DNA of 64,000 nt from Acidimicrobiia bacterium (lineage in GTDB: Bacteria > Actinomycetota > Acidimicrobiia > Acidimicrobiales > Bin134), in NCBI GenBank assembly GCA_022822905.1, contig JAJDYE010000023.1:30521-94520 (forward strand), read 5' to 3'. Below the pieces are notes generated by a model. The model saw nothing but the letters and a program-made list of their open reading frames with translations, did no database searches and was not told where the DNA came from. This document shows positions 8,000 to 24,737 of this stretch, one piece after another (position 1 is the stretch's first letter; each line of letters starts with the position of its first letter). The translations under genes and the position numbers were made by a program.

Positions 8000-8035
8000 T
8001 CCCCTTTTCGGTCAACGGGCGGTAGCTTTCGGGTA

Positions 8036-8869: not shown

Positions 8870-8887
8870 GCGAGGGCTGAGGCCTCG

Positions 8888-9286
8888 CTAGAAGTCGGTC
8901 TTCTCGGCCAGAGTCGCTCGAAAGGCGTCGTACTCGGCTGAGTCCAGCAGCGGACGCAGGCCAAAAACCCAGCGACCGTAGTCGCCATCCAGCTTCATCC
9001 GCCCCGACATGTAGGCCAGATCGGGATGATCTCCGCCGGAGATCTCCGCGCGGGCGTCGGCGTACTTGTAGATGATGCTCACGTCGGCGTCGGCCAGCTT
9101 GCCCGGGGCCATCTCCGCCAAGCGGCCGTTGTGGATGACCGCGTGGTAGCGGATCTTGCCGTCGGGCGCGCCGGTCACCTCATAGTTGACCGAGCAGTCC
9201 ACCCCTAGCCGCTCCGGCCACTCAGACGCGGCCCCGAGGTTCAAGCCGAACCACTCGTCGCTGAGAAACAGCGCCCGCTCGGTCAC
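8888..9286 (-). CDS. SCP2 sterol-binding-domain protein
   Basis: C-terminal AYMSGRMKLDGDYGRWVFGLRPLL is typical of SCP2. The GTG start at 9286 overlaps the mca stop by 1 nt (TAGTG). Confidence 0.6.
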   Translation of the reverse strand: MTERALFLSDEWFGLNLGAASEWPERLGVDCSVNYEVTGAPDGKIRYHAVIHNGRLAEMAPGKLADADVSIIYKYADARAEISGGDHPDLAYMSGRMKLDGDYGRWVFGLRPLLDSAEYDAFRATLAEKTDF

Positions 9287-10140
9287 TACTCGATCCCCGC
9301 GAACAGGTCGGTCTCGGGAATGTCGGTGTCCACCAGGCTGCGGCCCAGCATGTAGTCCTCCCACGGGTAGGCGTCGGCCATGTGGTGGTCGGGCAGGCCA
9401 AACCAGAACTTGGAGTCGGGGTCAACCTGAGTGCGGTGGGCCAAGAGCGCCTTGGACCGGCGGTCGAAGTACTCGGCGCAGTTGATGCGGGTGGTGATGG
9501 CATCGTCGTTGGACGGCCGGCTGAACCAGCGCTCGTCATAGGGCGACTCCAGATCCAGCTCACCGAACTTCTCGTGCAGGGCGGTTATCCGGTTCCGAGA
9601 CCAGGTCACGTAGTACATCTTCATCGGCTGCCACGGCTCGCCGGCGTCGGGATAGGCCTCGGGATCGCCGGCGGCATCGAATGCCGGGCCGCTGATCTCG
9701 GCCACCCGCAGATGGTCGGGGTGGCGATAGCCCTGCTGGTCTTCCCCGTAGGTGACCACCACATGGGGACGCTCGGCTCGCAGGATGGCCACGAGACGCC
9801 CCACGGCCTCATCCAAAGGGGCCTGGGCAAAGCTGCGGGGGTCGGCGTTGGCCTCGCTGTCGGGCATGCCGGAGTCGTGATACCCCAGCCAGTGGACGCT
9901 GCGATAGCCGAGCACATCAGCGGCCTCCACCAGCTCGTCCCGGCGGACCTGCTCCAGGTTCTCACGGACCTCGGGGCGGTCCATGGCCGGGTTCAAGATG
10001 TCGCCCTGCTCCCCGCCGGTGCAGCACACCAGCGATGCCACCACGCCCTGGTCGGCGTACATGGCCACCGTGGCCGACCCCTTCGACGACTCATCGTCGG
10101 GATGGGCGTGGATGGTGAGCAGTCGAAGGTCGCCGGTCAT
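9286..10140 (-). CDS. mca: Mycothiol S-conjugate amidase (PIG-L/LmbE deacetylase family)
   Basis: LLTIHAHPDDESSKGSATVAMYADQGV...CTGGEQGDILNPAM closely resembles the Mca N-terminus. 284 aa. Confidence 0.8.
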   Translation of the reverse strand: MTGDLRLLTIHAHPDDESSKGSATVAMYADQGVVASLVCCTGGEQGDILNPAMDRPEVRENLEQVRRDELVEAADVLGYRSVHWLGYHDSGMPDSEANADPRSFAQAPLDEAVGRLVAILRAERPHVVVTYGEDQQGYRHPDHLRVAEISGPAFDAAGDPEAYPDAGEPWQPMKMYYVTWSRNRITALHEKFGELDLESPYDERWFSRPSNDDAITTRINCAEYFDRRSKALLAHRTQVDPDSKFWFGLPDHHMADAYPWEDYMLGRSLVDTDIPETDLFAGIE

Positions 10141-10247
10141 CGCCTGCTTAGGCTAACGCCGCCAAAGCGGGGCTAGGAACCCGTGCCGGATGGCCGACCC
10201 CCAGTCCAAGACCCTTGAGGCATCAGGGCAAGGGTTAGTCTCCGGGG

Positions 10248-11150
10248 ATGCCAAGCCCAGAATTCGAAGCAGTTCGGTCGATGCTGGCGGCTGCTCCCGC
10301 GCCCGACCCCTCCGAGACCGCGGCGGAGCGCCGTGCCCGGCTGGACGCCAACGCCGCGGCCACGCCGCTGGCCGACGGGGTGGTGAAGGAGACCGTGGAG
10401 ATCCCCGGTGTGCCCGGCGCCGCCTGGCTGCGCCCCGAGGCTCACGACCCCGAGAGCCTTCCGGCGCTGCTGTTCTTCCATGGCGGTGGCTACCGGGTGG
10501 GATCGATCATCTCCCATCAGGGCTTCGGATCCCATCTGGCCTCATTGATCCCGGCTCGAGTGCTGATGATCGACTACCGGCTGGCGCCGGAGAATCCGTT
10601 CCCCGCCGCGGTGGACGACTGCCTGGCCGCCTACCGCTGGATGCTGGATGCCGGGATCGACCCGGGCCGCATCGCGTACATCGGCGACTCGGCTGGAGGC
10701 GGACTGGTGGGCGCGGTGTTGCTCGGGGCCCGAGACCAGGGCTGGCCGCTGCCCGGCGCGGGCGTGTGCCTGTCGCCGTGGATCGACCTGACCAACTCCT
10801 CGGCCAGTCACGCCGAGCGCGACGAGCTCGATGTGATGTTCGGCCACGACGATGCGGTGACCGCGGCCAGTTGGTACCTGGATGGCCACGATCCCCGTGA
10901 TCCGCTTGCCTCCCCGCTCTTCGGCGACTTGACGGGATTGCCCCCCATGCTGGTCCACGCCGGAGACCATGAGGTGCTGTTGGACGACGCCACCGGGTTC
11001 GCCGCCGCGCTGGAGTCAGCGGGCGTGGAAGTGGACCTCCGCATCTGGCCGGGCATGATCCACGACTTTCAGATCATGTACCCCAACTACCCCGAGGCGA
11101 TCGAGGGGACCGAGGCCATTGCGGCCTTCGTGCGACGCGTCGTGGAATGA
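10248..11150 (+). CDS. Alpha/beta hydrolase, HSL-type esterase/lipase
   Basis: Oxyanion HGGGY motif (FFHGGGY) and nucleophile elbow GDSAGG. Confidence 0.85.
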   Translation: MPSPEFEAVRSMLAAAPAPDPSETAAERRARLDANAAATPLADGVVKETVEIPGVPGAAWLRPEAHDPESLPALLFFHGGGYRVGSIISHQGFGSHLASLIPARVLMIDYRLAPENPFPAAVDDCLAAYRWMLDAGIDPGRIAYIGDSAGGGLVGAVLLGARDQGWPLPGAGVCLSPWIDLTNSSASHAERDELDVMFGHDDAVTAASWYLDGHDPRDPLASPLFGDLTGLPPMLVHAGDHEVLLDDATGFAAALESAGVEVDLRIWPGMIHDFQIMYPNYPEAIEGTEAIAAFVRRVVE

Positions 11151-11199
11151 GGAGGTTGAAGGCGCCGCCTGAATGCGGCGCCGGGTCAGCGCAGTCGGC

Positions 11200-11502
11200 T
11201 CAGGCCGATTCCCGCTCGGTGCGGTGGCGCCGCAGACCGATGACCGGAGTGGAGGGGGCGAAGCCCGCCTCTGCCCGCTCGATCTCCGACTCGCCGCCCC
11301 AGAAGCCGAGCTCGCGCTGGTCGCGGGCCCAACTGCGGCACGCCCGAATTACTACGCACTCCCCACAAATCCGCCGGGCTGCATTCTCCCGCCGCTCACG
11401 AGCCGACGGACGTTCGCCGGCCGGAGGGAAGAACAGCTCGCTCTTCCCTTTGCAGTTCGCATTTTCCATCCACCAAGGACGAGGCTCCATTGCCATCTCC
11501 AC
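11200..11502 (-). CDS. whiB: WhiB-family redox-sensing transcriptional regulator
   Basis: Four Cys in the WhiB arrangement (C-x29-CGEC-x5-C) and a GFWGG turn. Confidence 0.85.
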   Translation of the reverse strand: MEMAMEPRPWWMENANCKGKSELFFPPAGERPSARERRENAARRICGECVVIRACRSWARDQRELGFWGGESEIERAEAGFAPSTPVIGLRRHRTERESA

Positions 11503-11646
11503 CCATTGCCTCCCGTACGAGTCCGGGGGCCTTTTCTCCGTTTGGCTATTACTTCAGCAACCGAAACACCTAGCAATTGCTTAGATATTCGCCTGCTTTC
11601 AAAACAAAAGTTAGACGCTCGAATAGCGCCCGTCACGATATCCTAT

Positions 11647-13200
11647 ATGAATAGTTTTGATAAATCTATCCCGATAAGTGATAGTGCTTCGGCAGGAAGC
11701 GGCAACCTGCCCAAACGCCAAGTACTGGTCATCATACTCACTTTGATGCTGGCTCAGATGATGGCGGCCATCGAGGGCACGGTGGTGTCCACCGCGCTGC
11801 CCACCATCATCGGAGACTTGGGTCGGCGGGACCTGTACACGTGGGTTTTCACGTCTTATTTCATCGCCTCAACCTCAACCACCCCGCTGTGGGGAAAGCT
11901 CTCAGACCTGTGGGGGCGCAAGAGCCTGTACCAGACCGCCATCGTCATCTTCATGGTCGGATCGGTGCTGGCCGGGGTGTCGAGCGGCATGACCATGCTG
12001 ATCGTGTTCCGGGCCATCCAAGGGTTGGGCGCCGGCGGATTGTTCACGCTGTCGATGGCCATCCTGGCCGACGTGCTGTCGCCCCGGGAGCGGGGCCGGT
12101 ACCAGGGATACATGGGCGGGATCTTCGCTCTGGCCACCATCTTGGGGCCGCTGGCGGGGGGTCTGCTGGTGGACTACGCCCACTGGCGATGGGTCTTCTT
12201 CATGGTGCTTCCGCTCGGCGGTATCTCCCTGGTGATGTCGGTCACTCATCTCGAGTTGGCCTTTACCCGCCGCGAGGCCCGGGTGGACTACACCGGAGCG
12301 GGCCTGCTTGTGGTGTGGGTGATCGCCATCATCCTGGCAATGGAGCTGGGGGGCGACTCCTGGGATTGGGTGTCGGCCCCGTCGATCGCGCTGCTTGCCG
12401 CGGGAGTTGGGGGCGTGGCCCTGTTCGTCGCCCAGCAGCGGCGAACAGCCGAGGCCATCCTGCCGCCCCGGCTGTTCCGGTTCCGGCTGTTCAACATCTC
12501 CTGTGTGATCCAGTTCATCGCCGGGGCGGCCATGCTCAGTGCGGGCATCTTCGGACCGCTGTTCCTCCAAGTGGTCACCGATGTGAACGCCACCCGGTCG
12601 GGGCTCCTGCTGGTGCCCATGATGCTGGGGATGCTGCTCACCTCGGTGAGCGCCGGGCAGGTGCTGACCCGTACCGGTCGCTACAAGGCGGTGCCGATCT
12701 TCGGAGCCGGCGTGCTCACCTTGGGGGTGTGGCTGATGTCCACCCTCAGCGGCGAGACGTCGACGGTGACGGCCATGGCCTATCTGTTCACTATGGGCTG
12801 CGGAGTGGGCGCCATCATGCAGGTGCTCTTGGTCGCGGTGCAGAACATCGTCCCCCACGACGACTTGGGGGCGGCAACGTCGGCGTCAAACTTCTTCCGC
12901 TCCTTGGGCCAGACCTTCGGTTCCGCGGTGATGGGGGTCGTGTTCATTTCCCGACTTGACCACTACCTGCCCCGGCTGGTGCCGGGCGGCGAGCAGCTCG
13001 ACATCGAAGCGCTCATCGAGGCCCCCACCCAAATCGGCGCCATTGAGCCCGCGTCGGTGCGGAACGGCATCGTCGAGTCGTTCGCCAATGCCATCGCCGA
13101 CATCTATTGGTGGGCCATCCCGGTGACGGCATTGGCCGTGGTCTTGGCCATGCTGGTGCCCGAGTACCGCCTGCGAGAGAAGGCCGCCATCGGGAACTAG
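11647..13200 (+). CDS. MFS transporter, DHA2 (EmrB/QacA-like, 14-TMS) family
   Basis: ATG 11647 follows an AT-rich leader. Multiple hydrophobic spans. MFS motif A-like GKLSDLWGRK and FRAIQGLGAGG. The longer ORF-track start at 11173 runs antisense through whiB. Confidence 0.8.
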   Translation: MNSFDKSIPISDSASAGSGNLPKRQVLVIILTLMLAQMMAAIEGTVVSTALPTIIGDLGRRDLYTWVFTSYFIASTSTTPLWGKLSDLWGRKSLYQTAIVIFMVGSVLAGVSSGMTMLIVFRAIQGLGAGGLFTLSMAILADVLSPRERGRYQGYMGGIFALATILGPLAGGLLVDYAHWRWVFFMVLPLGGISLVMSVTHLELAFTRREARVDYTGAGLLVVWVIAIILAMELGGDSWDWVSAPSIALLAAGVGGVALFVAQQRRTAEAILPPRLFRFRLFNISCVIQFIAGAAMLSAGIFGPLFLQVVTDVNATRSGLLLVPMMLGMLLTSVSAGQVLTRTGRYKAVPIFGAGVLTLGVWLMSTLSGETSTVTAMAYLFTMGCGVGAIMQVLLVAVQNIVPHDDLGAATSASNFFRSLGQTFGSAVMGVVFISRLDHYLPRLVPGGEQLDIEALIEAPTQIGAIEPASVRNGIVESFANAIADIYWWAIPVTALAVVLAMLVPEYRLREKAAIGN

Positions 13201-14195
13201 TCCTGGTCGGCTTCCCCGCTGGCCCTCTGGATGCGGGCACCTCTTTCGGCAATCAATCTCCCGGCCCCGATCCCATATTCACTCAGCGCCCGCATCACCC
13301 CCAGCAGGCTCTGGTCCCGTTGACGCTCCAACTCGGCCACTGTGCGCCCGGCCGCCTGGACTTCGGTGCCAGCGGCCATGGCCTCAATGAGTTCCTCGGT
13401 GAGCTCGGGGGCCTCCATGTGGGCCCAAGGCAGCTTCAAGGCGGGGCCGAACTGGCTCAGCATGTGCCGCATCCCGCCCTCGCCCCCGGCCAAGTGGAAG
13501 GTGAGATTGGTGCCCATGGCCGCCCAGCGAAGACCCGGTCCGTAGACCACGGCGTCGTCCAGCTCGGCGGTGGTGGCCACCCCGTCGTTCACCAGATGCA
13601 GCACCTCTCGCCACAGGGCTTCCTGGAGGCGGTCGGACAGGTAGCCCTCGATCTCACTTCGCACGACGAGGGGGTGCATGACCAAGTCGTCATAGTGCTC
13701 CACTGCGGCGGCCACCGCATCGGCGCTGGTGGCCTTACCAGCGACCACCTCCACCAGCGGCAGCAGATACACCGGATTGAACGGATGGCCGATGAGCAGG
13801 CGCTCGGGGTGGTGCAGGCCCTCCGCCAAGCGAGTGGGCAAGAGTCCCGAGGAGCTGCTGGCGATCACCGTGCGGGGCGGGGCGGCGTCGTCCAAGCGGC
13901 GTATCAGGGTGCGCTTGATCTCCTCATCTTCGGGAGCGCTCTCCTGGATCCAGTCAGCGGCCTTGGCCACTTCCTCTGGGGAGTCGGCCCACCCCACCCG
14001 GCTGGGGTCGGCCCCGGGGAACAGCCCCAGTTCGGTGGCCGCAGGCCAGGCTCGCTCAATGGCTTCTAACAGCCGGTCTTCGGCGCCGACGGCTGGATCC
14101 CAGGCCACCACGTCGTACCCTCGGGCCAGCACCCGTACCGCCCAGCCCGAGCCAATGACCCCCGTCCCCACCAGTCCGATGGTCTTGGTCGTCAT
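13197..14195 (-). CDS. 3-hydroxyacyl-CoA dehydrogenase family protein (L-carnitine dehydrogenase-like)
   Basis: IGLVGTGVIGSGWA Rossmann motif and HPFNPVYLLPLVEV. Confidence 0.75.
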   Translation of the reverse strand: MTTKTIGLVGTGVIGSGWAVRVLARGYDVVAWDPAVGAEDRLLEAIERAWPAATELGLFPGADPSRVGWADSPEEVAKAADWIQESAPEDEEIKRTLIRRLDDAAPPRTVIASSSSGLLPTRLAEGLHHPERLLIGHPFNPVYLLPLVEVVAGKATSADAVAAAVEHYDDLVMHPLVVRSEIEGYLSDRLQEALWREVLHLVNDGVATTAELDDAVVYGPGLRWAAMGTNLTFHLAGGEGGMRHMLSQFGPALKLPWAHMEAPELTEELIEAMAAGTEVQAAGRTVAELERQRDQSLLGVMRALSEYGIGAGRLIAERGARIQRASGEADQD

Positions 14196-14214
14196 CTCCC
14201 GTGTCGTGCCTTCT

Positions 14215-14604
14215 TCACCACAGAACCCGGACGGGGAACTCTCGGAACGCGGTGTCTCTCGTGACCAATATCAACGACTCCAACTCCGCCTGAGCGGCCA
14301 AAATCCGGTCGAACGGGTCTCGGTGTTCTGCAACATAGCTTCCGGCACGCAGACCGTGCTGGTAGGTGACCGGCAAGTGCCGCATCGCCGCGTCGAGGGC
14401 AAACTCATTGAATCGCAATACAGCACCCTCATATTCGGGCAGCCGGCCGAGCCGGAACTTTGTGGCAATCTCCCAAGCGCTCGCCGCGCTGACGAATACG
14501 TTGTTTTGCGAATCCCTCAGTGCTTCTTGCGCGCTATTCGATAGCGCAGGATCGGCCGACCACCACCACAGCAGCGCATGAGTGTCGAGCAGCAGGTCAT
14601 TCAC
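14215..14604 (-). CDS. vapC: PIN-domain ribonuclease toxin VapC
   Basis: LLLDTHALLWWW...SAASAWEIATK...TRD. The GTG start at 14604 overlaps the antitoxin stop (GTGAATGA). Confidence 0.8.
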   Translation of the reverse strand: MNDLLLDTHALLWWWSADPALSNSAQEALRDSQNNVFVSAASAWEIATKFRLGRLPEYEGAVLRFNEFALDAAMRHLPVTYQHGLRAGSYVAEHRDPFDRILAAQAELESLILVTRDTAFREFPVRVLW

Positions 14605-14851
14605 CTGAATACGCGCCCTCCCACGCCGCGAGCTCTTCTTCGGGAAGTGGTTCAAAGAACTCAGGACCGACGACCAATCCGGCTAGCTGCCCACAGCGGC
14701 GGGGTCCGCTGGGCGCCAACGGCATCAGGCGAGCGTAGGGCGTGCCCGCTTTGGCCAAAATGATCTCTTCCCCATTGTGCGCTCGTTCCAACAGCCTCGA
14801 CAAATGGGTCTTGGCTTCGTGGACATTAACCATCGCTGACATTCTCATCAC
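14597..14851 (-). CDS. Phd/YefM-family type II antitoxin
   Basis: VNVHEAKTHLSRLLERAHNGEEIILAKAGTPYARLMPL. The true start may be an internal Met (14833 or 14842). Confidence 0.8.
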   Translation of the reverse strand: MMRMSAMVNVHEAKTHLSRLLERAHNGEEIILAKAGTPYARLMPLAPSGPRRCGQLAGLVVGPEFFEPLPEEELAAWEGAYSGE

Positions 14852-14884
14852 TCCTGCCTGGTATTTTGCGCTTGCGAAAATGAC

Positions 14885-14905
14885 TTAGTCTGATGACTAG
14901 ACTAA
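14885..14905. promoter_or_regulatory. Candidate TA operator: inverted repeat TTAGTCT-N7-AGACTAA
   Basis: Perfect 7-bp arms in the 143-nt AT-rich gap between the phd start and the jetC-like start. Statistically weak on its own. Confidence 0.3.
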
Positions 14906-14994
14906 TAGAAGATTCTCCAGTCAGCAACTACGCGTAGTCGCATTGTTGGTTCACACCGGGGGCTATGGCCAAAGTGTCACCGTGACCCACTAGC

Positions 14995-17727
14995 TTGCTT
15001 GCCGTGAGCCAATCGGAGCATTCGGCTGCCGGGCAGCCTTTGGCAGACGCCAATGCGGCTAGCAGGCGATGGCGGTTGAACCGCGCTGGCATCGTCAACG
15101 TGTACCAGTACGAGAACGAGGTTCTGCATTTCGGAGGCGGTCGGCTGCTGCTGCGAGGGGTAAACGGGTCGGGCAAGACGACGGCAATGAACATGCTGCT
15201 CCCGTTTCTGCTTACCGCCCGTCTGCGCCGCATTGACGCCGCAGGCGAGCAGAGCGGCATGCTCAAAGCTTGGATGCTCAATGGCCGCGACGATGCCCAA
15301 CCAGTCGGCTACCTGTGGATCGAGTTCGAGCGGCAAGGTGAATTCCTCGTATGCGGTTGCGGCATCAAGGCCAGCCGGTCGTCGGACGCGGTGACCACAT
15401 GGTGGTTCATCACCTCCAAGCGGCCGGGCTTCGACCTTGATCTAGTCGAGCGGAGAATCCCCCTATCCGCTGATGCGCTGAAAGTCACCCTCAGCGGAGA
15501 CCAGGTTTTCCATGAACGCCAACGCAACGGCTACCGCAAGGAAATCGAGCGCCGTTTGTTCGACGGAGCATCCATCGACCAGCACATCGGGCTCATCAAC
15601 GTGGTCCGCAGCCCCCGGGTTGGCGACCGGATCGATGTCGACCTCCCCGCCCACCTGATCGATGCTCTGCCCCAGCTCTCCGAGCAGGCGCTGTCCGAGG
15701 CGGCCCAGCCGCTCGACGATCTGGAAGAGCACCGCGGCAACGTGGCCGAATTGGCCCGGACATTGGATGCGCTACGAGGGCTGCTCACCGTCTATCGGGC
15801 CTATTGCGTCGGCGACCTCCGCCAACGGGAAACTGCGGGAAGGGACCAGCTTGACGACCAGCGTGCCAGTTCTGAGCAAGAGACGCTGGCTCGGCGTGAG
15901 GCCGCGACCGCAGAGGCCGAGGTCGGACGACTGGACACCGCTATCGCCGAGCTGGACAAGGATGCCCACCGGCTAGCCGGCCAAATCGACGCCTTGGAGA
16001 AATCACAGGTTTATCGCGACGGCCAAGACCTCGATGCCCTGCGTCAGCATGTGGGCACTCTCGACACCCTGCGCAATAAAGCTGTTGAACGGGTTGCCGA
16101 CCGGACTCGGCGAGTCGAGCGTGCGGCCAGCGAGCTGATACAAGCCCGACAACGCTGCCGAGACGATATTGAGAGGTTCAACGCTGGATTGGCGACCGCA
16201 ACTGAACTGGGCGGGCGCTGTCGAGTCGACCGGCGGCCCCCCAATCCTGTGGTGCTAGCCGAAAGCGCGCTGGGCAAGCCGGTTCAGGCCGAATCCACGA
16301 TGCCCGGCACCGAGACGACCGAACCTGCCGATCAACTTGATTGTGAGGAGATCAATCGCCAGATCGCCGCAGCAGAGGGGGCAGTTCTCCGTCGTCAGGC
16401 TGACATCGAAGCAGTCGAATCAGCTCTGGGCAGTCTCGAATCTGCTGTGCAGCTGCTCAGCCTGGCCGAGTCGGCACGCGACAGCGCAGCCCGCGATTCA
16501 GAGAGTGCGGCGCAGCGGCTTAAGGAACAGCGAGAACACCTCGACACCTTCTGCCAGGAGTGGTCAGCCCATACCCGTCTTTGGGCGTCGGCAGTCCAAC
16601 CGGTTCTAGACGAAGTCGGCATTCGGGCGCCGGCCAACGCTGCATGGGCCGTGCCCGCTGATGACAGCCCTCCTGCAACAACCACTGGCACCCAAACCCG
16701 GCCAGACGGCGCAAGCACGCATGATGCAGACTCGGTGGTTGTCCATCTCAGAGCAGAGCACGGCAGGTTGCAGGATGAGGCCGATCTGCTCGTTGACTTT
16801 CGGCGAGATGCGGTTGCGGCGATCGGGCAGCGGTTGCTCCGCGAGCAGAGGGTGCTGGAAGAAGCGCAGGCGCTGGTTGACGAACTCGCGGCCCGAACCG
16901 AGCCTGATCCGCCTCGGTTTGATTGGCAGACGCCCTCCGACTACTGCCTGGCCGACCTGATCGACTTCGCGCCCCATCTCGAAGACGATGGACAAGCGGC
17001 TCTCGAGGCCGCTCTTCATGCATCGGGGCTGCTTTCAGCCCGCTTGGGCGATGGCCCCGCCGTGGAGTTGGACAATGGTGAGCTGATTGCCGTCGTCGCC
17101 GGCGGCGTCTCCAGCCCACTCAGTGAACACCTCACGGTGACCGTGCCCAACCATCTCATCGGCACCGTGGATGAGGGTTTGATCGCCAAGCTGCTCGACT
17201 CCATCTCGTACGACTTGTCGAGCGATGCCTCCACCGTGGTCACATTCGATGGCGCGTTCCGGGTGGGGTCGCTTCGTGGTCGTCACTCCAAGAAGCAAGC
17301 CGAGTTCATCGGCGTAACCGCCCGCCGCGCTGCGCTGGATCGCGCTCGGCAAGACGCAGTCGAACGTCTTGCCCAAGCCCAAGCCGTTTTCACCAGCTGC
17401 GAAGCCGAGCAGGACAGGTGCCGGTCGTCGCTCGACCAAGCCAAACAGCATCGGTCCAACCTGCCGGCCATCGACGACATCACCGTTGCATCGGCCCGAG
17501 TCGATGACGCTTTTCAAAGAGCCGACGAGGCCGAACGGAACTTGGCGGCAGCCATCCGACAAGCTGCCGAAGCCGAGCGCCGACAACTGCCATGGCACGC
17601 CTGGCCCAGCCATGCCTCGGTGTCATCCGACAAGCTGCCGAAGCCGAGCGCCGACAACTGGATGAGTCCAACGCTCTCCACCAGAAAGCGACAACGCTGG
17701 CGCTGCCAGCTGATCGCGCCGGTCTGA
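14995..17727 (+). CDS. jetC: SMC-like ABC ATPase (JetC / TIGR02680-like), N-terminal fragment: 865 native codons plus 45 out-of-frame codons
   Basis: RWRLNRAGIVNVYQYENEVLHFGGGRLLLRGVNGSGKTT (Walker A) followed by long Ala/Glu/Arg/Leu coiled-coil sequence. The frame is lost at 17590 inside a 71-bp insertion. TTG 14995 or GTG 15004 start. Confidence 0.8.
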   Translation: MLAVSQSEHSAAGQPLADANAASRRWRLNRAGIVNVYQYENEVLHFGGGRLLLRGVNGSGKTTAMNMLLPFLLTARLRRIDAAGEQSGMLKAWMLNGRDDAQPVGYLWIEFERQGEFLVCGCGIKASRSSDAVTTWWFITSKRPGFDLDLVERRIPLSADALKVTLSGDQVFHERQRNGYRKEIERRLFDGASIDQHIGLINVVRSPRVGDRIDVDLPAHLIDALPQLSEQALSEAAQPLDDLEEHRGNVAELARTLDALRGLLTVYRAYCVGDLRQRETAGRDQLDDQRASSEQETLARREAATAEAEVGRLDTAIAELDKDAHRLAGQIDALEKSQVYRDGQDLDALRQHVGTLDTLRNKAVERVADRTRRVERAASELIQARQRCRDDIERFNAGLATATELGGRCRVDRRPPNPVVLAESALGKPVQAESTMPGTETTEPADQLDCEEINRQIAAAEGAVLRRQADIEAVESALGSLESAVQLLSLAESARDSAARDSESAAQRLKEQREHLDTFCQEWSAHTRLWASAVQPVLDEVGIRAPANAAWAVPADDSPPATTTGTQTRPDGASTHDADSVVVHLRAEHGRLQDEADLLVDFRRDAVAAIGQRLLREQRVLEEAQALVDELAARTEPDPPRFDWQTPSDYCLADLIDFAPHLEDDGQAALEAALHASGLLSARLGDGPAVELDNGELIAVVAGGVSSPLSEHLTVTVPNHLIGTVDEGLIAKLLDSISYDLSSDASTVVTFDGAFRVGSLRGRHSKKQAEFIGVTARRAALDRARQDAVERLAQAQAVFTSCEAEQDRCRSSLDQAKQHRSNLPAIDDITVASARVDDAFQRADEAERNLAAAIRQAAEAERRQLPWHAWPSHASVSSDKLPKPSADNWMSPTLSTRKRQRWRCQLIAPV
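17553..17660 (+). repeat. Direct duplication: two perfect 37-bp copies (17553-17589 and 17624-17660) flanking a 34-nt unique spacer
   Basis: CATCCGACAAGCTGCCGAAGCCGAGCGCCGACAACTG occurs twice, 71 nt apart. Both copies encode IRQAAEAERRQL in the two different frames. Confidence 0.95.
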
Positions 17728-19421
17728 GCGCCACCCGCGGTGAATTGAGGGAGATGCAGGCAGAGCTGTGGCAGTGTCGATCCCATCTCAACGCGCTGGA
17801 GCGTTCCTTCGAAGGATGGAGACACTCGGTCGCCCATTGGCAAACAGAGACCTGCGATCTCAACAACGAGCAAGCTGAACAGCGAACCTTCGAGACCAAA
17901 CACCGCCGAGAGCAGGCCCGACTGGACACCATCGAAGAGAACATCGGTGCTGAGTACGCAGAGATCCTTGCTGCCCGTGATTCCTGCCAACGCAAGATGG
18001 ATGATGTGGAAACCCGCCTGCCGGCCACCCGCAAGAAGCGAGAACTCGCCGTTGAACGACGGGCCGACACGCGCGCCAAGGCCGACGCCGCCGCCAGCCA
18101 GCGGGCCGCATCCGAGCAGAAGTGCGAGGAGATGCGGCAGTCATTGGCCGCAGTGCTCGCCATCCCGGGGCTACGAGCGGCTGTCGCCCACCCCGAGCAC
18201 CCTGATTCGGGGCATGTATCCACGGTGGCCACCGGTGCCGCCGGTCTCGGCGAACTGGTCGAGGCTGTCGAGCACCTCTTGGGCACCAGCCAAAGCGGCG
18301 ACGGCACCGATCCCTCCCCGCCATCTCCACCAAGTGGGGAACGAGATGCCGGCACAGGCACGCAGGGCGGCGCGGCCACAACCACCGCCGACGGGGTTCG
18401 GCAATCGCTGCTACGGCGTCGAGACACCCTCGGTGCCGGATGGGATGCCGAGGCCAGACAGCCTGATCCAGCCCAGCCGCTGGTCATTGAGGTAACCGGG
18501 CCGCTGGGCAAAAGGGCCCCGCTGGTCGAGGCGATGCAGACGGTGGAGCAGCAACATCAGCAGCTCGCGGGCTTGCTCAGCCGCAAGCAGGACGACGCAT
18601 TGCGCGAACTGCTCCAAGGGTTGGTCGCCCGCGAGGTGGCCGAGAAAGTTCGGGGAGCGAAGCGGTTGGTCGATCTCATGAACCAGCGGCTCGAAACGGT
18701 TACCACTGCCCATCATGTCGGGGTGAGGCTGCGATGGCGCCGCTCCCCTGAACTCGATCCAGCCACAGCCCGCAAGGTCGACCTGCTGGCGACTCTCCCC
18801 GACTTGCGAACCGATGAAGATGAGCAGGAGTTGCGACTTGCGCTCTCCAATCAGCTGGACGAGGCCCGAAGGCTCCATCCAGATACGCCTTACCGACAGC
18901 TCATCGCCGACACGCTCGACTACAAGCAGTGGCATGACTTGGCGGTCATGCTGCGACGGCCGGGCAGCAGCGATGTCCGGCTCAGCCGACGCACACCGCT
19001 GTCGGAAGGCGAGAAGAAACTGGTGACCTACCTGCCCTTGTTCGCCGCGGTGGCCGCTTCCTATGACGCCCTGGCCGAGCAGCATCGCACTCCCGACAAC
19101 GGCCCGCCGGGCATCGCCCGGTTCATCCTGCTCGACGACGCATTCGCCAAGGTGTCCGAAGATAACCACGATCAGTTGTTCGGGTTGCTCGTGGATCTAG
19201 ATCTCGACTTGATTGCCACCAGCGAACGGCTGTGGGGCACCCTCCCGAGCGTCCCCGAGTTGGCGATCATCGAGGTCTGTCGGGATGCGACCCTCAATAC
19301 CATCCTCCTGGAGCACTACCATTGGGACGGCATCACCCGCGAACCCCGAGACACACCAGACGGCAGCACCAGCGCTCGCGCTGCCGTGAACCTCGACCAA
19401 GGGCACCGGTCCCTGCAATGA
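17592..19421 (+). CDS. jetC: SMC-like ABC ATPase (JetC / TIGR02680-like), C-terminal fragment
   Basis: Its ATG lies inside the 34-nt spacer. Coiled coil, then an ABC-signature-like LSEGEKK and Walker B/D-loop ARFILLDDAFAKV. The stop overlaps the next ATG. Confidence 0.75.
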   Translation: MARLAQPCLGVIRQAAEAERRQLDESNALHQKATTLALPADRAGLSATRGELREMQAELWQCRSHLNALERSFEGWRHSVAHWQTETCDLNNEQAEQRTFETKHRREQARLDTIEENIGAEYAEILAARDSCQRKMDDVETRLPATRKKRELAVERRADTRAKADAAASQRAASEQKCEEMRQSLAAVLAIPGLRAAVAHPEHPDSGHVSTVATGAAGLGELVEAVEHLLGTSQSGDGTDPSPPSPPSGERDAGTGTQGGAATTTADGVRQSLLRRRDTLGAGWDAEARQPDPAQPLVIEVTGPLGKRAPLVEAMQTVEQQHQQLAGLLSRKQDDALRELLQGLVAREVAEKVRGAKRLVDLMNQRLETVTTAHHVGVRLRWRRSPELDPATARKVDLLATLPDLRTDEDEQELRLALSNQLDEARRLHPDTPYRQLIADTLDYKQWHDLAVMLRRPGSSDVRLSRRTPLSEGEKKLVTYLPLFAAVAASYDALAEQHRTPDNGPPGIARFILLDDAFAKVSEDNHDQLFGLLVDLDLDLIATSERLWGTLPSVPELAIIEVCRDATLNTILLEHYHWDGITREPRDTPDGSTSARAAVNLDQGHRSLQ

Positions 19422-20998
19422 CCGATGCCTCCCCCTCCCTCGCCCCCAATGGGAATGCCGCACCGGCCCGACAGCTATTCCGCTATCTGGGCGGCGACGA
19501 ATGGGCGGAGTACCGGGCCATCCTCCGCGTGTTCGCCGGCACATTCTTCACCGATTTCAGTCCCGAAGAAGTAGAAGTCGAGGTCGCTCCCGCCGGAGTT
19601 GACCCGTCAGCGGTGCCCGACCGGCTGGAGAGTCTCTACCGCTGGGGCAATCTCACCGTGTCGTCATCGGTCGGCAACCCTTCGAGCCTCGAAGACTACA
19701 ACCTCAAGCGCAAGCGCTATCTCATCACTCGGGCCGGACAGGAGGTATTCGAGTTTGTTGAGCAGATGCTGGCCAACGTGGACCAAATCGGCGATGTGCA
19801 AGCCGGTCGCCTCCGCGACCTCCACCGCGCCCTGATAGTGCTAGGCCAGCATGGTGAAGCCGGCTTCGACCGAGTCGGCGGTCAAGACCTAGGCGATGCG
19901 GTGCGGGCAGTGTTCGATCTCCATGAGCGCTTCACCGACGAGTTGACGCAGTTCTTCGCCGAACTCAACCAGTGGCAAAGCCGCTATGACCTCGACGCCG
20001 ACGAGGTCCACTTCTTCGCCAGCGTACTGGTGGACTACGTAGCGGAGCAGCTCACCGAGGTCGAGCGCATGACCCGGCCGATCGCCCGGGCGCTTGAGCA
20101 GATTCTGCCCCGACTTGACACCCTGCTTCCCGCACTGCGGTCCGGCTTGGCCGCGCGCGTAGACGAAGCCGGATTGGCGGAGAATGTGGCGGTACGGCGG
20201 CTGCCCGGCACAGAATCCGCCGATTGGCGATACCTCGAAGCATGGTTCACCGCCAGCCCCGGAAGGCCATCGCGGCTCGACCTGCACACCCGTCAGGCGG
20301 TGGCCGCGGTGCGAACCCTCACCGCCAATGTGACCCGGCTGTCTCGAGTCGGACTCGGCGCGGCATCGAGGCGCTCCGACTTCGTGCGGCTTGCCAGGTT
20401 CTTCGATCAGGCCGCCACTCCCGATGATGCTCATCAGATCGCGGCTGGCGCATTCGGACTCGGCTCGTGTCGCCGTCTCAGCGCGCTCGCCGATGACGCC
20501 GATGACCCCGTCCCCACAATTACCCCATGGCGGGACGCGCCCCGAGCAGTGGTCCCAGTGGCCTTGCGAGAGCGCGGCGAAACCGGATTGCGCGGCCAGC
20601 CGACGCCGATCCCCAACCGAGGGAGCGAACGAGAGATGATGCGCCGACGCCGCGAGATTGACCGCTCCACTCGTGAGAATGCGGCCACCGAACTGCTGGC
20701 CTGCGCGGGCAACGACGGGCAAATCGACGGTGCCCAGTTGTCGTTGGCCTCATTCACCATGCTGCGCGATCTCATCAGCCGATCTGGTCTGCGATCTGGC
20801 ATCGCGGCCGACAGCCGCTCCGCAACCGACGCTGGAGTCCGGTGCGAAGTGCTGCGGGTCGAAGGAGGGCGCACTGTGGTCTGCTGCCCCGACGGTCAGC
20901 TCACCATGCACGATCTCATCGTCACCGTCACCCCGGTCAAGAACAACTCATCGGCGGCCTCAACCTCTACTCCATCGCCGATGCCCGCGTCCCTATGA
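19418..20998 (+). CDS. jetA: JetA-like subunit (DUF2397 / TIGR02677-type)
   Basis: ATGA overlap with jetC. The N-terminus LFRYLGGDEWAEYRAILRVFAGTFFTDFSPEEV resembles my recollection of the TIGR02677 family. Operon position supports the call. Confidence 0.65.
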   Translation: MTDASPSLAPNGNAAPARQLFRYLGGDEWAEYRAILRVFAGTFFTDFSPEEVEVEVAPAGVDPSAVPDRLESLYRWGNLTVSSSVGNPSSLEDYNLKRKRYLITRAGQEVFEFVEQMLANVDQIGDVQAGRLRDLHRALIVLGQHGEAGFDRVGGQDLGDAVRAVFDLHERFTDELTQFFAELNQWQSRYDLDADEVHFFASVLVDYVAEQLTEVERMTRPIARALEQILPRLDTLLPALRSGLAARVDEAGLAENVAVRRLPGTESADWRYLEAWFTASPGRPSRLDLHTRQAVAAVRTLTANVTRLSRVGLGAASRRSDFVRLARFFDQAATPDDAHQIAAGAFGLGSCRRLSALADDADDPVPTITPWRDAPRAVVPVALRERGETGLRGQPTPIPNRGSEREMMRRRREIDRSTRENAATELLACAGNDGQIDGAQLSLASFTMLRDLISRSGLRSGIAADSRSATDAGVRCEVLRVEGGRTVVCCPDGQLTMHDLIVTVTPVKNNSSAASTSTPSPMPASL

Positions 20999-22197
20999 CC
21001 ACCCCACCCGCAGCCACAGAGACGGCCAATCGACAGCAGGAGCTGGATCTCCGCAGCGCTGCCCGCCATCTCGTCAGACATCCGCTTGTGCTGGCCGAAA
21101 ATGATCCTGAGATGCTGGCGCTGATCCGCCGACACGAGCACACACTCGACCGTTGGTTCACCCAGCGCTTCGGCTATCGCCTTCAGGTCACCGCCGACAC
21201 TGCCCGCTTGTTCAAGTCGTCGGTGGTCGCCCGTCGGCGCCCGCTGCTGACGGCAACTAGCCAGAGCCGTGCCTTCTCCTCGCGTGAATACACGTTGCTC
21301 GCCCTGTCCTTGGCCGCGGTCGCCGCCGGGCCGACCGTGATCAGCCTTCGCGATCTGATCCACGAGATCCGCTCTGCGGCCACCGATGCCGACATCGTCC
21401 TGACCGAAGAAGCAACCGACCGCCGCGCCTTGGTCACCGCCTTGAAGTGGATGATCCAGTACGGCTTGGCCAGCGAGATGCACGAGCACATTGACCGCTA
21501 TGTCTCCGATGAATCCGCCGACGCAGTGCTGCGCATCCGCCCCGACCGCGTCGCGCTGTTGCCACTTCCGGCGCTGGCCAGTTCGGAGGCTGCGCCGCAA
21601 TTGCTCGACCGCTCCGACCGGCGGCTGTCTTCGCGGGCATGGATGCGCTCCACATTGTTGGAAGAGGCGGTGCTGTACCGCACCGACCTCACCGACGGCG
21701 AGTGGGCCGAACTGCGACAGCGCCTGGGAGAGGAGGGAGCGATCTTCGACGACATGTTCGGGCTACGGCTTGAATCAAGGGCCGAGGGCATCATGGCCAT
21801 CGATCCCGACAACGAGATGACCGACAGCCGCTTCCCCCGCAGCGGCACCGTCGGGCACGCGGCCCTCCTGCTCCTCGACCGGCTCGCCCACTCCGTTTCT
21901 TCAGCACCGGTGGAAGAACAACCCGACAACCAGATAGCCGAGAACCGCGATCCTGATGGGGCGGGGCGGACCCCAATCACCCGTGATGAGGTCGTCGAGG
22001 TAGTGACTGCACTGGCCTCCGAACACCGCCGCTATTGGTCACAAGACGCTCAGAACCCAGAGCGTTTCGCCAACGACATCCTCGATCTGCTGGAAGACCA
22101 CCGCTTGGTCGAGGTGACCGGCGATGTGGTCTGGCTCCTGCCCCCCGCCTGGCGATACTCGGTAGACGTCCAATATCAGCAGGACTCGCTGTTGTGA
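20995..22197 (+). CDS. jetB: JetB-like subunit (DUF2398 / TIGR02678-type)
   Basis: ATGA overlap with jetA. 400 aa. LVRHPLVLAENDPEMLALIRRHEHTLDRWFTQRFGYRLQVTADTARL is as recalled for TIGR02678. Confidence 0.6.
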   Translation: MTTPPAATETANRQQELDLRSAARHLVRHPLVLAENDPEMLALIRRHEHTLDRWFTQRFGYRLQVTADTARLFKSSVVARRRPLLTATSQSRAFSSREYTLLALSLAAVAAGPTVISLRDLIHEIRSAATDADIVLTEEATDRRALVTALKWMIQYGLASEMHEHIDRYVSDESADAVLRIRPDRVALLPLPALASSEAAPQLLDRSDRRLSSRAWMRSTLLEEAVLYRTDLTDGEWAELRQRLGEEGAIFDDMFGLRLESRAEGIMAIDPDNEMTDSRFPRSGTVGHAALLLLDRLAHSVSSAPVEEQPDNQIAENRDPDGAGRTPITRDEVVEVVTALASEHRRYWSQDAQNPERFANDILDLLEDHRLVEVTGDVVWLLPPAWRYSVDVQYQQDSLL

Positions 22198-23468
22198 CAT
22201 CCGACCCATTCCCCGAGCCGTCCCCCCGCTCGACCGCTGCACCTGCGGCATCCCGGCCTGTCCCCGAGTCGCTGCTCACCTCTGGACTGGAGCCGGTGTG
22301 GTGCGCAACCCGCCAACGGCTCGACCGCTTCGGCCCCCAGCGCCGGGGCACGATCAGCTGCCCGCCGCTCGACCCCGCGAGCGCCCTGGCCATCGAGTCG
22401 CTGCTGGGGCGAACCTCAGCCAGGCGCTTGGACTTGGAGGAATTGGAAGCAGCCCTCGTGGCCCGTGGCATCGGCGCCGATCTTTGCGACGCGCTCACTC
22501 GACTTGGATATCCCCCGTCGGCCGAGGCCGCCCGACGAAGGAGCGATCGTTCCCGCGCCCAAGAGGCCCGGGCGGCGCTGCACGACACCGTCACCGCTTG
22601 GGACGAGCCTTGGACTGCTGAGTGGGCTGATGGCATCGCGGGCGCTGGATTATTGCGAGACTTGGACGGCGAAAGCGCTGCCCGTCTCACCGCCGATGTG
22701 CGCCGCTTGCTCGACTATCTTGATCGCGTTCGACCCGAAGGCATCAGCCGCACAGAGACCGCCGCCGCTCTCTACGGGTCGGCGCACGCCCTCGACGCTG
22801 GCACAAGGCGGGCCAGCGCGGTAACCCACGCTCTGCGCCACCGGATCGGCCCGCTGGATGAGCGCGAGCTCTGGGAGGCGGCTGGCATCCTTCCTGACCG
22901 CGTTTCGGCTCCAGCACTTGTCTGGTGGCTTCCGGTCGCTGGCTCTTCGGCATTGGATGTGCAGATCCGATTTGCCCTCCAGGCTGGGTTGCCCCTTCAC
23001 ATCAGCTTGTTTGCCCTGCGAAAGCACCCCATCTCCGTCGATGCAGGCACCCCCGTGCTTGTCGTCGAGAATCCAAGACTGGTCGAGGCCGCTGCCGAGC
23101 GCAGCCTGCCGGTCTGCGTGATCTCGTCCAATGGGAACCCCTCCACTGCGGTTACCACCCTGCTTCGCCAACTCCAGCAAGCCGAGGCATCCCTCTGGTA
23201 TCACGGCGACTTCGACTCGCCAGGCATAGCCATATGCCGCCGAATGCACGAATTCGGCTGCTCACCGTGGATGATGGATTCCCCCGAATACGTCGGCGCG
23301 ATCCGACAAGCGGAAGAGTCCGATGTGCAACTCATGTCGGATCACAAAGAATGCGGCCCAACTCCGTGGGATCCAAAGCTCCAAGCTGCGTTCGACCACC
23401 ACCGCCTCATCATCCACGAAGAGTTCGTGCTCGACGGCGTTCTCAACCGCTTCAGCCGAGTCAACTAG
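22194..23468 (+). CDS. jetD: JetD-like subunit (DUF2399 / TIGR02679-type) with C-terminal Toprim-like nuclease domain
   Basis: GTGA overlap with jetB. C-terminus VLVVENPRLVE...VISSNGNPSTA...LWYHGDFDSPGIAICRRM gives the Toprim E ... DxD pattern. Confidence 0.7.
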   Translation: MTSDPFPEPSPRSTAAPAASRPVPESLLTSGLEPVWCATRQRLDRFGPQRRGTISCPPLDPASALAIESLLGRTSARRLDLEELEAALVARGIGADLCDALTRLGYPPSAEAARRRSDRSRAQEARAALHDTVTAWDEPWTAEWADGIAGAGLLRDLDGESAARLTADVRRLLDYLDRVRPEGISRTETAAALYGSAHALDAGTRRASAVTHALRHRIGPLDERELWEAAGILPDRVSAPALVWWLPVAGSSALDVQIRFALQAGLPLHISLFALRKHPISVDAGTPVLVVENPRLVEAAAERSLPVCVISSNGNPSTAVTTLLRQLQQAEASLWYHGDFDSPGIAICRRMHEFGCSPWMMDSPEYVGAIRQAEESDVQLMSDHKECGPTPWDPKLQAAFDHHRLIIHEEFVLDGVLNRFSRVN

Positions 23469-23488
23469 TGACTGTGAGGTGACTCCGG

Positions 23489-24244
23489 TCACCAGGTGGG
23501 GTTGGTGAGGATCCCGCCGTCCACCACCAGATCGGCTCCGGTGATCCACCGGGCCAGATCGGAGCACAAGAACACGCAGGCGTCCCCGACGTCTTCAGCG
23601 GTGCCCAAGCGGCCGAGCGGGACGGCGGCCGTCCACCGCTCCACGCCCTCGGGCCAGTCGTCGGCCAGACCGGGACGGTCGATCAACCCAGGAGACACCG
23701 AGTTAACCCGAATGCCATGGGGACCCCAAGCAAGAGCAGCCGCCTTGGCGTGCATTACTAGACCGGCTTTGGACGTCGCGTAGTGGCCGTGAACGGGAGT
23801 GGGATGTTGAGCCTCAATGGAGGCGATATGGACGATGGACCCACCAGTGCCCTGTTCCCGCATGGCCGAGGCAGCTGCCTGGGTCAGCCGATGCACCGCG
23901 GTGAGGTTGGTGTCGATCATCTCAGACCATTGCTGATCGTCCAGATCGGTGAACGGAGTCACCGGCTGGATCCCGGCGTTGTTGACCAGGGCGTCAATCC
24001 GCCTGTGTCGATTGAGGGCTGCGTCTACCACCGCAGCTGGACCGTCTTCGGTGTTGAGATCGGCCATCACCTCAGTGACCTCTCCTCCGCCGTGCTCAAC
24101 CGCTGACGACCGAGTGTGGGCCACCACTGAGGCACCCGCGGCAGCCATGCGCCGGACGATCCCCCCGCCAATCCCCCCACCCGCGCCGGTAACCACCACC
24201 ACCTTGCCGGTGAGGTCGATCATCTCAGCAGGCGATGCAGTCAC
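23489..24244 (-). CDS. SDR-family oxidoreductase (FabG-like)
   Basis: VTGAGGGIGGGI, NNAG and YATSK motifs. Confidence 0.85.
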   Translation of the reverse strand: MTASPAEMIDLTGKVVVVTGAGGGIGGGIVRRMAAAGASVVAHTRSSAVEHGGGEVTEVMADLNTEDGPAAVVDAALNRHRRIDALVNNAGIQPVTPFTDLDDQQWSEMIDTNLTAVHRLTQAAASAMREQGTGGSIVHIASIEAQHPTPVHGHYATSKAGLVMHAKAAALAWGPHGIRVNSVSPGLIDRPGLADDWPEGVERWTAAVPLGRLGTAEDVGDACVFLCSDLARWITGADLVVDGGILTNPTW

Positions 24245-24720: not shown

Positions 24721-24737
24721 TGACCCTAGCTTTCCCT

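Follow-up and report, generated by a model that had tools for sequence, protein, structure and literature searches.

The window analysed here, a stretch of 64,000 nucleotides from a Ca. Poriferisocius-like Acidimicrobiia sponge symbiont, contains a long gene that is broken in two by 71 extra base pairs bounded by direct repeats. This raises the questions of whether the break is a true feature of the organism's DNA, how it arose and what it does to the encoded protein. By sequence comparison, the interrupted gene is jetC, encoding the predicted SMC-like ATPase of a type II Wadjet operon with the arrangement jetC-jetA-jetB-jetD. The results presented below make it very probable that the window carries a real, very recent and strain-specific insertion allele of jetC within a conserved type II Wadjet anti-plasmid operon.

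Anatomy of the interrupted jetC gene

The interrupted site comprises the following segments:

17553..17589, forward strand: R1, first copy of the 37-bp direct repeat, which is native jetC coding sequence with the codons for ..IRQAAEAERRQL
17590..17623, forward strand: S, the 34-bp unique inserted segment, which carries an ATG at 17592
17624..17660, forward strand: R2, second copy of the 37-bp repeat, 100% identical to R1, constituting the target-site duplication

The repeat, found at 17553-17589 and 17624-17660 with 100% identity, is CATCCGACAAGCTGCCGAAGCCGAGCGCCGACAACTG, and the 34-nt spacer between its copies is CCATGGCACGCCTGGCCCAGCCATGCCTCGGTGT. The bases bordering the two copies differ on both sides (C versus T before, C versus G after), which sets the duplicated unit at exactly 37 bp and the insert at exactly 34 bp. 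The chance expectation of such a perfect repeat is ~1e-14, and this pair is the sole interspersed perfect repeat of its kind in the 64-kb window. Sequence comparison therefore bore out the repeat and spacer coordinates, the perfect identity of the copies and the unique 34-nt spacer of the original prediction. The lesion is 34 bp of foreign DNA lying between two copies of a 37-bp target stretch; relative to the intact allele described below the site is otherwise unchanged, the exact 37-bp duplication and the 34-bp insert accounting for all of the difference. A tandem duplication was ruled out because S resembles neither the 34 bp preceding R nor the 34 bp following it. No local donor for S was found on either strand of the window or of nine related loci, in which the best match was a 13-mer, at chance level, and S was single-copy in all these sequences. 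Rfam returned nothing at gathering threshold anywhere in the window and nothing credible at E<10 around the site, and the insert folded no better than shuffled sequence, with no significant local structure. These null results ruled out an RNA element, an intron or a structured bypass signal.

The 37/34 geometry of the site is that of a CRISPR repeat-spacer-repeat unit; neither this point nor the exclusion of a tandem duplication was part of the original prediction.

The insertion divides the coding sequence into two frames:

15076..17727, forward strand: 5' fragment of jetC, 838 native codons followed by 45 out-of-frame codons and TGA, its start being that of the intact allele
17592..19421, forward strand: ORF of the 3' fragment of jetC, in which native sequence resumes at 17661 and continues for 586 codons

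The disruption of the frame was as had been predicted, the upstream ORF staying out of frame for 45 codons until it meets the TGA that ends at 17727, and an ORF reopening at ATG 17592 within the spacer. Likewise, deletion of one repeat plus the spacer did yield a single ORF of 1451 codons from TTG 14995; the restored product is more likely a protein of 1424 amino acids that begins at TTG 15076, as is annotated for the intact allele. The 5' fragment contains a Walker A motif (GSGK, residue 31), the ascending arm, the hinge and the start of the descending arm, and matches positions 1-824 of the TIGR02680 model and 8-825 of PADLOC JetC2. The 3' fragment contains the rest of the arm, a signature-like LSEGE at 1285 and a Walker B motif (LLDDAF) at 1328, and matches positions 817-1357 of PADLOC JetC2, continuous with the 5' fragment, and 1051-1355 of TIGR02680. 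Each of the interrupted halves scored below the TIGR02680 cut-off in the window. The junction falls after residue 838, past a conserved hinge block at about 589-756 and ahead of the C-terminal head, which begins at about 1093, and the 42 residues around the junction include no Pro or Gly, are 64% A/E/R/Q/L/K and show heptad periodicity. Position and coiled-coil composition place the break within the descending part of the coiled-coil arm, the arm having been proposed as its location originally.

The Wadjet operon and its intact allele

Downstream of jetC are the genes for the other Wadjet components:

19418..20998, forward strand: jetA (kleisin-like, DUF2397), 181 bits with TIGR02677 versus a cut-off of 165.85, PADLOC JetA2 E=9e-128
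20995..22197, forward strand: jetB (KITE-like, DUF2398), 162.8 bits with TIGR02678 versus a cut-off of 124.65, PADLOC JetB2 E=1e-89
22194..23468, forward strand: jetD (nuclease subunit, DUF3323/DUF2399), 196.6 bits with TIGR02679 versus a cut-off of 196, PADLOC JetD2 E=1e-92

The four genes are contiguous and linked by ATGA/GTGA start-stop overlaps, the start of jetA overlapping the stop of jetC (ATGA), that of jetB the stop of jetA, and that of jetD the stop of jetB. The intact JetC allele scored 589.4 bits against the TIGR02680 cut-off of 462.85 and matched a solved JetC structure (PDB 9qe0, E=4e-47). The operon resembles type II Wadjet (JetABCD), an MksBEFG-like SMC anti-plasmid nuclease system, in that all four components are present, contiguous and above the curated NCBIfam cut-offs, JetC by its intact allele. 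It differs in the interruption of jetC in the window strain and in gene order, which is A-B-C-D in described Wadjet systems and C-A-B-D here. The latter order is also present in another species of the genus, whose syntenic jetC-A-B-D locus encodes an intact JetC of 63% identity.

A strain with an intact jetC, ~99% identical to that of the window over 24 kb, was found in another sequencing run. Its locus (ENA, KELL22-1, scaffold_577) aligns to window positions 5076-17589 and 17624-29421 and contains one R and no S. Outside clustered SNP tracts the divergence of the two strains is ~0.07%, the jetD DNA is identical in both, and over 1424 residues the repaired JetC of the window shows only 3 differences from the intact allele. 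Each of the 120 best-scoring homologues has a length of 1324-1480 amino acids, none being of half length, and the junction is free of gaps in the 20 homologues that were aligned (54-92% identical). The insertion allele was seen only once, and none of the close homologues shows the insertion. Three readings of the locus had been put forward originally. The first, a very recent inactivating insertion, was supported by the single repeat copy and the near-identical protein of the ~99%-identical intact strain. A genuinely split ATPase was refuted by the orthologue comparison that the prediction itself had proposed, the two-ORF arrangement not being conserved. The remaining one, a reversible on/off switch, is physically possible, with no evidence of programmed or recurrent switching.

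The window comes from a metagenome of a mixed population assembled from short reads, and neither of its two half-proteins (three variants with different starts were searched) is on record as a called gene. Both observations could be accounted for if the 71 bp were an assembly or sequencing artefact absent from the organism's DNA. Such an artefact was checked for with Logan, an independent k=31 assembly made with a different assembler, in whose contigs no 31-mer can occur a second time. One contig, SRR16351697_88762, stops at 17582, that is with the first 30 nt of R1, and contig SRR16351697_92244 starts at 17631, with the last 30 nt of R2; both are 100% identical to the window. Each contig thus covers exactly k-1 = 30 nt of R, the first from the left and the second from the right, a pattern that would arise only if the reads show R with two different sequences on its left side and two on its right. 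By contrast, a contig of the sister run SRR16351696 reads straight through a single R without a break. Breakage at both repeat copies in one run and read-through in the other indicate that the insertion is real and not produced by the assembler of the window. As the Logan contigs and the window probably derive from the same reads, this comparison excludes an artefact of the assembler and not one of the library, and the k=31 contigs are uninformative on an intact allele co-existing in the SRR16351697 sample. With regard to the library, S has no match in phage records, which would include PhiX, and is presumably unlike Illumina adapter sequences. An artefact is, on these grounds, exceedingly improbable.

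Origin of the insertion

The geometry of the scar leads us to favour, tentatively, a natural off-target CRISPR adaptation event, in which Cas1-Cas2 would have put a 34-bp prespacer into the coding sequence of jetC. A duplication of 37 bp and an insert of 34 bp are within the usual length ranges of CRISPR repeats and spacers, respectively. A staggered cut of fixed length would have been made in jetC and a short duplex of foreign DNA ligated into it, with gap filling then generating the 37/34/37 product; Cas1-Cas2, the integrase of CRISPR adaptation, performs this reaction and would here have acted at a non-CRISPR site. The 37 bp would have been duplicated as if they were a CRISPR repeat, leaving a one-spacer neo-CRISPR seed within the gene. 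The Cas1-Cas2 enzyme could have been supplied by the symbiont itself or by a mobile element passing through it.

There are precedents for the elements of such an event. In vitro, Cas1-Cas2 of P. furiosus can complete full-site integration at off-target positions, where the target is duplicated over a spacing of repeat length (PMC6698737), and the same was described in vivo in E. coli by Nivala et al. (2018), as cited in PMC7054753 and bioRxiv 10.1101/148544. Natural off-target integrations have so far been documented only circumstantially, according to passages of the literature citing Nivala et al. (2018). Spacers acquired by a type I-U system are mainly of 36 bp (PMC6547450). As for sponge symbionts, MAGs of Ircinia symbionts, the Actinobacteriota set among them, show an enrichment of cas1-4 and csb1-2 genes, a result that does not concern the window genome specifically (PMC9531527), and CRISPR-Cas is among the enriched defence categories of sponge-symbiotic Actinobacteriota (PMC11706023). 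The jetC scar is like the products of off-target neo-CRISPR integration, as described in PMC6698737 and in papers citing Nivala, Shipman & Church (2018), in its geometry, a spacer-length insert within a perfect repeat-length duplication with clean borders. It differs from them in being natural and located in a chromosomal coding gene, whereas those cases involved over-expressed or purified enzymes. It is also a single unit and not a growing array, and it could be connected neither to cas genes or a native array nor to a similar repeat or a protospacer.

These negative findings come from several searches. No CRISPR array was present in the window or related loci. Nothing cas-like was detected in selected ORFs scanned with Pfam, NCBIfam or PADLOC, in 5-29 kb of the allelic contig according to precomputed Pfam annotation, or in 29-61 kb as judged by reading the translations only. 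Comparison of R to the Rfam CRISPR repeat families gave no CRISPR-DR match even at E<10. A genuine CRISPR array was rejected, the site being a single unit whose repeat is jetC coding sequence, with no Rfam CRISPR-DR match and no adjacent cas genes. The exact 34-mer of S had no match in IMG/VR or GTDB genomes, its 24-mer core had none in JGI metagenomes or IMG/VR, and its third-codon-degenerate (wobble) pattern had none in IMG/VR, GTDB genomes or JGI metagenomes; blastn of S against phage and plasmid records returned chance-level hits only (E ≥ 0.9). Since most natural spacers lack matches too, the missing protospacer for S is weak evidence.

Only slightly less likely is that duplication and insertion took place without an integrase, which would entail the same lesion and the same consequence. 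In one such route, template switching of the FoSTeS/MMBIR type, replication would copy R, take 34 nt from a distant template and then resume at the start of R; in the other, a staggered break would be end-joined by Ku/LigD with a captured filler fragment. That no cas genes, array or protospacer were found in the DNA searched (window, related loci and sequence collections) speaks for these routes, either of which would fit a unique insert for which no donor was found, and mutagenic NHEJ is common in Actinobacteria. However, both routes predict arbitrary lengths, so that 37 bp and 34 bp being both CRISPR-typical would be a coincidence. Moreover, template switches usually copy nearby and often inverted sequence, and nothing like S is found in the 64-kb window or related loci. 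The Ku/LigD route would demand a 37-nt staggered break, which would not be expected to separate spontaneously.

A transposable-element insertion or excision footprint would likewise be a short foreign insert flanked by a direct target duplication. The duplication in jetC is, however, of 37 bp, and S, at 34 bp, is too short for an element. To our knowledge no transposon family gives a 37-bp duplication, those of IS elements, transposons and casposons being of 2-15 bp. Terminal inverted repeats are lacking, and neither S nor its surroundings yielded an inverted repeat. An insertion sequence, MITE or other mobile element was rejected in view of the missing terminal inverted repeats, the 37-bp duplication and the single copy of S.

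Consequences for JetC and Wadjet function

Whatever its origin, the insertion almost certainly inactivates jetC, as judged from the reading frames. The additional 71 nt would shift the frame, and the first product would consist of 838 native and 45 nonsense residues, retaining Walker A and lacking the signature and Walker B motifs. The remaining part of jetC would have no ribosome-binding site of its own, and the overlaps that link jetC, jetA, jetB and jetD would be left 1.7 kb past the premature stop. Taken together, frameshift, motif loss, missing ribosome-binding site and distant overlaps make loss of Wadjet function the most likely outcome in the window strain. The C-terminal fragment may still be produced in small amounts, and the two halves may reassemble to some extent.

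Perfect repeats only 71 bp apart make precise reversion to wild type mechanistically easy, as deletion between them by repeat-mediated slippage can restore the exact sequence. Wadjet might therefore be conceived as toggled ON and OFF, the 71 bp being gained and then lost precisely by recombination or slippage between the 37-bp repeats, for instance to permit plasmid uptake, and both states are present, in near-identical strains from two samples. The site recalls contingency loci, in which tandem duplications or slipped-strand events cause frameshifts, in its close perfect direct repeats, its loss of frame and the possibility of exact reversion. However, the jetC repeats are parted by unrelated DNA, and the forward event cannot recur by slippage. 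While the OFF-to-ON change is plausible by repeat deletion, the ON-to-OFF change would need the same foreign 34 bp to be inserted again, for which there is no mechanism. Furthermore, a single insertion allele stands against close homologues all devoid of it, and no invertase, simple-repeat tract or other switch machinery is found at the site. Such a reversible switch is accordingly very unlikely, and nothing at the jetC insertion indicates a regulated one.

Even less probable is a functional split SMC ATPase, with both polypeptides made and reassembling through the coiled coil. Both ORFs are long and in frame with native sequence, an ATG is present in the spacer, and the break affects the arm and not a globular domain. 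However, the ~99%-identical strain is unsplit and no half-length protein is found among the 120 best-scoring homologues. In addition, ATG 17592 is located inside the translated upstream ORF and is not preceded by a Shine-Dalgarno-like motif, and the N-terminal fragment would bear a nonsense tail of 45 residues. Programmed translational bypassing or frameshifting, by which ribosomes would leave the message at R1, land on the identical R2 71 nt further on and make full-length JetC much as in phage T4 gene 60, which also has a non-coding gap inside an ORF bounded by matching sequence, has a negligible probability, because the jetC gap is a new insertion found in one strain and absent from the sister strain and all homologues, so that no bypass signals can have evolved, and neither such signals nor significant local structure nor an Rfam match at gathering threshold was found.

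As a gene loss, the break in jetC is ordinary, individual strains often losing defence genes, and the interest of the locus lies in a scar shaped like a misplaced CRISPR spacer. The loss of jetC has been captured at a very early stage, while the intact allele is still in circulation within the same host genus. If the tentatively favoured Cas1-Cas2 origin is true, the enzyme with which one immune system writes its memory would have knocked out another immune system. The locus would then be a clean and dated example from a wild symbiont, its ancestral allele known, of a real mutagenic cost of CRISPR adaptation in nature, and would imply that CRISPR adaptation is able to disable another defence system. 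In addition, the locus would provide a simple genomic signature by which more events of this kind could be recognized, namely a repeat-length target duplication with a spacer-length insert that is absent from sister strains.

The type II Wadjet operon and its surroundings

The two halves of jetC matched contiguous parts of one family model.

Matches of the jetC halves to family models
TIGR02680: model positions 1-824 and 1051-1355
PADLOC JetC2: model positions 8-825 and 817-1357

Intact-form JetC scored 589 bits against TIGR02680 (cut-off 462.85) and matched the solved JetC structure 9qe0 (E=4e-47), and JetA, JetB and JetD, encoded by the three genes after jetC, each scored above their own curated NCBIfam cut-off. 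By these matches the operon is a type II Wadjet anti-plasmid system, with the unusual order jetC-jetA-jetB-jetD in place of the A-B-C-D order known from described systems. The order found at 15076-23468 recurs in two related loci (L008, 10001-18202; L009, 7675-15876). Successive genes overlap at every junction (ATGA, ATGA, GTGA), an arrangement suggestive of translational coupling. The closest named homologues belong to the sponge symbiont Candidatus Poriferisocius (Acidimicrobiia), and the names given to the samples are consistent with the Ircinia sponge metagenomes of Kelly et al. 2022 (NovaSeq 2x150, MEGAHIT).

Features around the operon
14215-14842, minus strand: PhdYeFM antitoxin and PIN-domain toxin pair, directly upstream of jetC and divergent
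24738-27069: HTH regulator, N4/N6 DNA methyltransferase and SmaI-like endonuclease match, just downstream of Wadjet
61312-63852: EcoRV-like endonuclease, C5 cytosine methyltransferase and PhdYeFM antitoxin, at the low-GC window end (59% GC)

The PhdYeFM/PIN pair is kept beside the Wadjet operon in a different species, whose JetC is 63% identical. The genes at 24738-27069 resemble a type II restriction-modification module; the SmaI-like match is weak (22.5 bits, under cut-off), and the methyltransferase is called at 244 and 278 amino acids in the two strains. A second restriction-modification module, with a possible toxin-antitoxin partner, lies at 61312-63852. GC at third codon positions is 0.72-0.75 in the Wadjet genes versus 0.83-0.92 in surrounding metabolic genes, and regional GC falls to 0.60-0.63 over 14000-27000, a composition suggesting a horizontally acquired defence island whose position is nonetheless kept across species. 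Elsewhere, downstream of the P450 gene, positions 32860-32922 hold a tandem repeat of a 33-bp unit (1.9 copies, 93% matches), whose pattern seems to differ in the sister strain (L002, about 20639-20720).

A strain-specific insertion in jetC

Elements of the insertion
17553-17589: R1, first copy of the 37-mer CATCCGACAAGCTGCCGAAGCCGAGCGCCGACAACTG
17590-17623: S, 34-nt spacer CCATGGCACGCCTGGCCCAGCCATGCCTCGGTGT
17624-17660: R2, second, identical copy of the 37-mer

The perfect 37-bp repeat around a unique 34-nt spacer was confirmed as the original prediction had described it, as were the reading frames: the upstream ORF runs through 45 out-of-frame codons to a TGA ending at 17727, and an ATG within S (17592) reopens the frame. 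In-silico removal of one repeat and S restored a single uninterrupted jetC ORF, again as proposed. Bases bordering R1 and R2 are unlike on both sides, which fixes the duplicated unit at exactly 37 bp and the insert at exactly 34 bp. The chance expectation of such a repeat is ~1e-14, and no further interspersed perfect repeat of this type occurred in the 64-kb window or nine related loci. The junction falls after residue 838, in a segment with heptad periodicity that contains no Pro or Gly, between a conserved hinge block and the C-terminal head; its predicted location in the coiled-coil arm thus holds, specifically in the descending arm.

An artefact of the window's assembler was rejected, since independent Logan contigs break exactly at both repeat copies. 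The exact window JetA protein is encoded on a Logan contig of run SRR16351697 that matches the window at 100% identity along 13.4 kb and begins at 17631, so that it includes just the last 30 nt of R2; the upstream contig, also 100% identical, ends at 17582, 30 nt into R1, as predicted beforehand. Logan assemblies are built from 31-mers, each allowed once among an accession's contigs, and these breakpoints are the necessary outcome when a 37-bp repeat has two different contexts on its left and two on its right. In sister run SRR16351696 a contig carries the intact allele, unbroken through the repeat. The SRR16351697 contigs and the window were probably built from the same reads, and contigs at k=31 are blind to co-occurrence of the intact allele in that sample.

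The top database match to repaired JetC was a single protein of 1424 amino acids (P0001) from a sister strain (contig L001), listed as 100% identical and differing at 3 residues on direct comparison. L001 aligned to 5076-17589 and 17624-29421, the two alignments overlapping by exactly the 37 bp of the repeat; the sister strain therefore has one repeat copy and no S. The best-scoring 120 JetC homologues are all 1324-1480 amino acids long, and 20 of them, aligned (54-92% identical), are gap-free across ..AAEAERRQL|DESNAL... A different species, with a JetC 63% identical, has intact jetC, the same jetC-A-B-D order and the same flanking genes, so the lineage has kept the operon intact. A genuinely split ATPase, which the original prediction had also entertained, was rejected on these grounds, the orthologues compared having no two-ORF arrangement, whereas its reading of a very recent insertion agrees with the sister allele. 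These comparisons mark the 71-bp insertion as a new event confined to one strain. Over 24 kb, 233 substitutions separate the two strains, and their distribution is strongly clustered, in a small number of tracts; the sequence between tracts is nearly identical (divergence about 0.07%), and the tracts look like recombination imports. They lie at 7580-8330, 11335-11425, 18512-18617, 24239-25068 and 28035-29030, with up to ~100 SNPs per kb. One 10-SNP tract within jetC, downstream of the insertion, contains two amino-acid changes, and the third lies just downstream of it, at 18775.

The insertion leaves Walker A (GSGK, residue 31) on the first JetC fragment, which finishes with 45 nonsense residues, and the signature-like LSEGE (1285) and Walker B LLDDAF (1328) on the second. 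ATG 17592 lies inside the translated upstream frame, with no Shine-Dalgarno-like motif found at it, and translation would stop prematurely, 1.7 kb before the point where jetC and jetA overlap. From the split motifs, nonsense tail and missing Shine-Dalgarno, this is most likely a null allele of the Wadjet system, in line with the inactivating lesion that was one of the readings first proposed. Close to potential restart codons there is a single purine-rich motif: at 17745-17756, GAGGGAG directly abuts ATG 17754, in frame with the 3' fragment, a spacing shorter than ribosome-binding sites typically have.

With 37-bp repeats only 71 bp apart, repeat-mediated slippage could readily delete the segment between them. 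Precise reversion would thus be easy and re-creation of the insertion would not, leaving the suggested two-way on/off switch unsupported.

Origin of the insertion

In the product, two copies of a fixed-length target piece flank a short foreign duplex, a geometry that implies strand transfer staggered by 37 bp, followed by gap filling. The candidate enzyme is the CRISPR adaptation integrase Cas1-Cas2, acting off-target, an origin that we favour tentatively and with less than even confidence. Cas1-Cas2 inserts 30-40-bp fragments. The transposon and casposon target duplications known to us are all 2-15 bp, and among enzymes we know of Cas1-Cas2 alone makes duplications of 25-40 bp. The scar has the geometry of off-target spacer integration known from laboratory systems, which occurs at repeat-length spacing in vitro in P. 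furiosus (PMC6698737) and in vivo in E. coli (Nivala et al. 2018, as relayed in PMC7054753; bioRxiv 10.1101/148544); for natural genomes, the evidence in the sources covered is circumstantial only. A type I-U system acquired mainly 36-bp spacers (PMC6547450), cas1-4 and csb1-2 are enriched in Ircinia symbiont MAGs, the Actinobacteriota set included (PMC9531527), and CRISPR-Cas is among the enriched defence categories of sponge-symbiotic Actinobacteriota (PMC11706023).

Counting against Cas1-Cas2, no CRISPR array was found in the 64-kb window, and nothing cas-like was seen there in scans of selected ORFs and, for 29-61 kb, in the translations. An integrase-free route, either template switching or end-joining that captured filler DNA, is in our view only slightly less likely than Cas1-Cas2, with a smaller share of the probability left to other origins. 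The repeat bears no resemblance to the CRISPR repeat families of Rfam. On either strand, S has no relatives in the window or related loci, and IMG/VR, GTDB genomes, JGI metagenomes and the phage and plasmid records gave no match to it; terminal inverted repeats, an unusual fold and any RNA-family match reaching gathering threshold are likewise absent. Tandem duplication was rejected, S being unlike either flank, as was the unit as a CRISPR array, transposon, intron or programmed bypass site.

As a gene break, the jetC insertion is an event of an ordinary kind: a recent allele that has most likely lost its function. A genomic cas1-cas2 with repeats of ~37 bp would make the scar more interesting, and if Cas1-Cas2 produced it, jetC would offer a rare natural off-target integration with the ancestral allele in hand.
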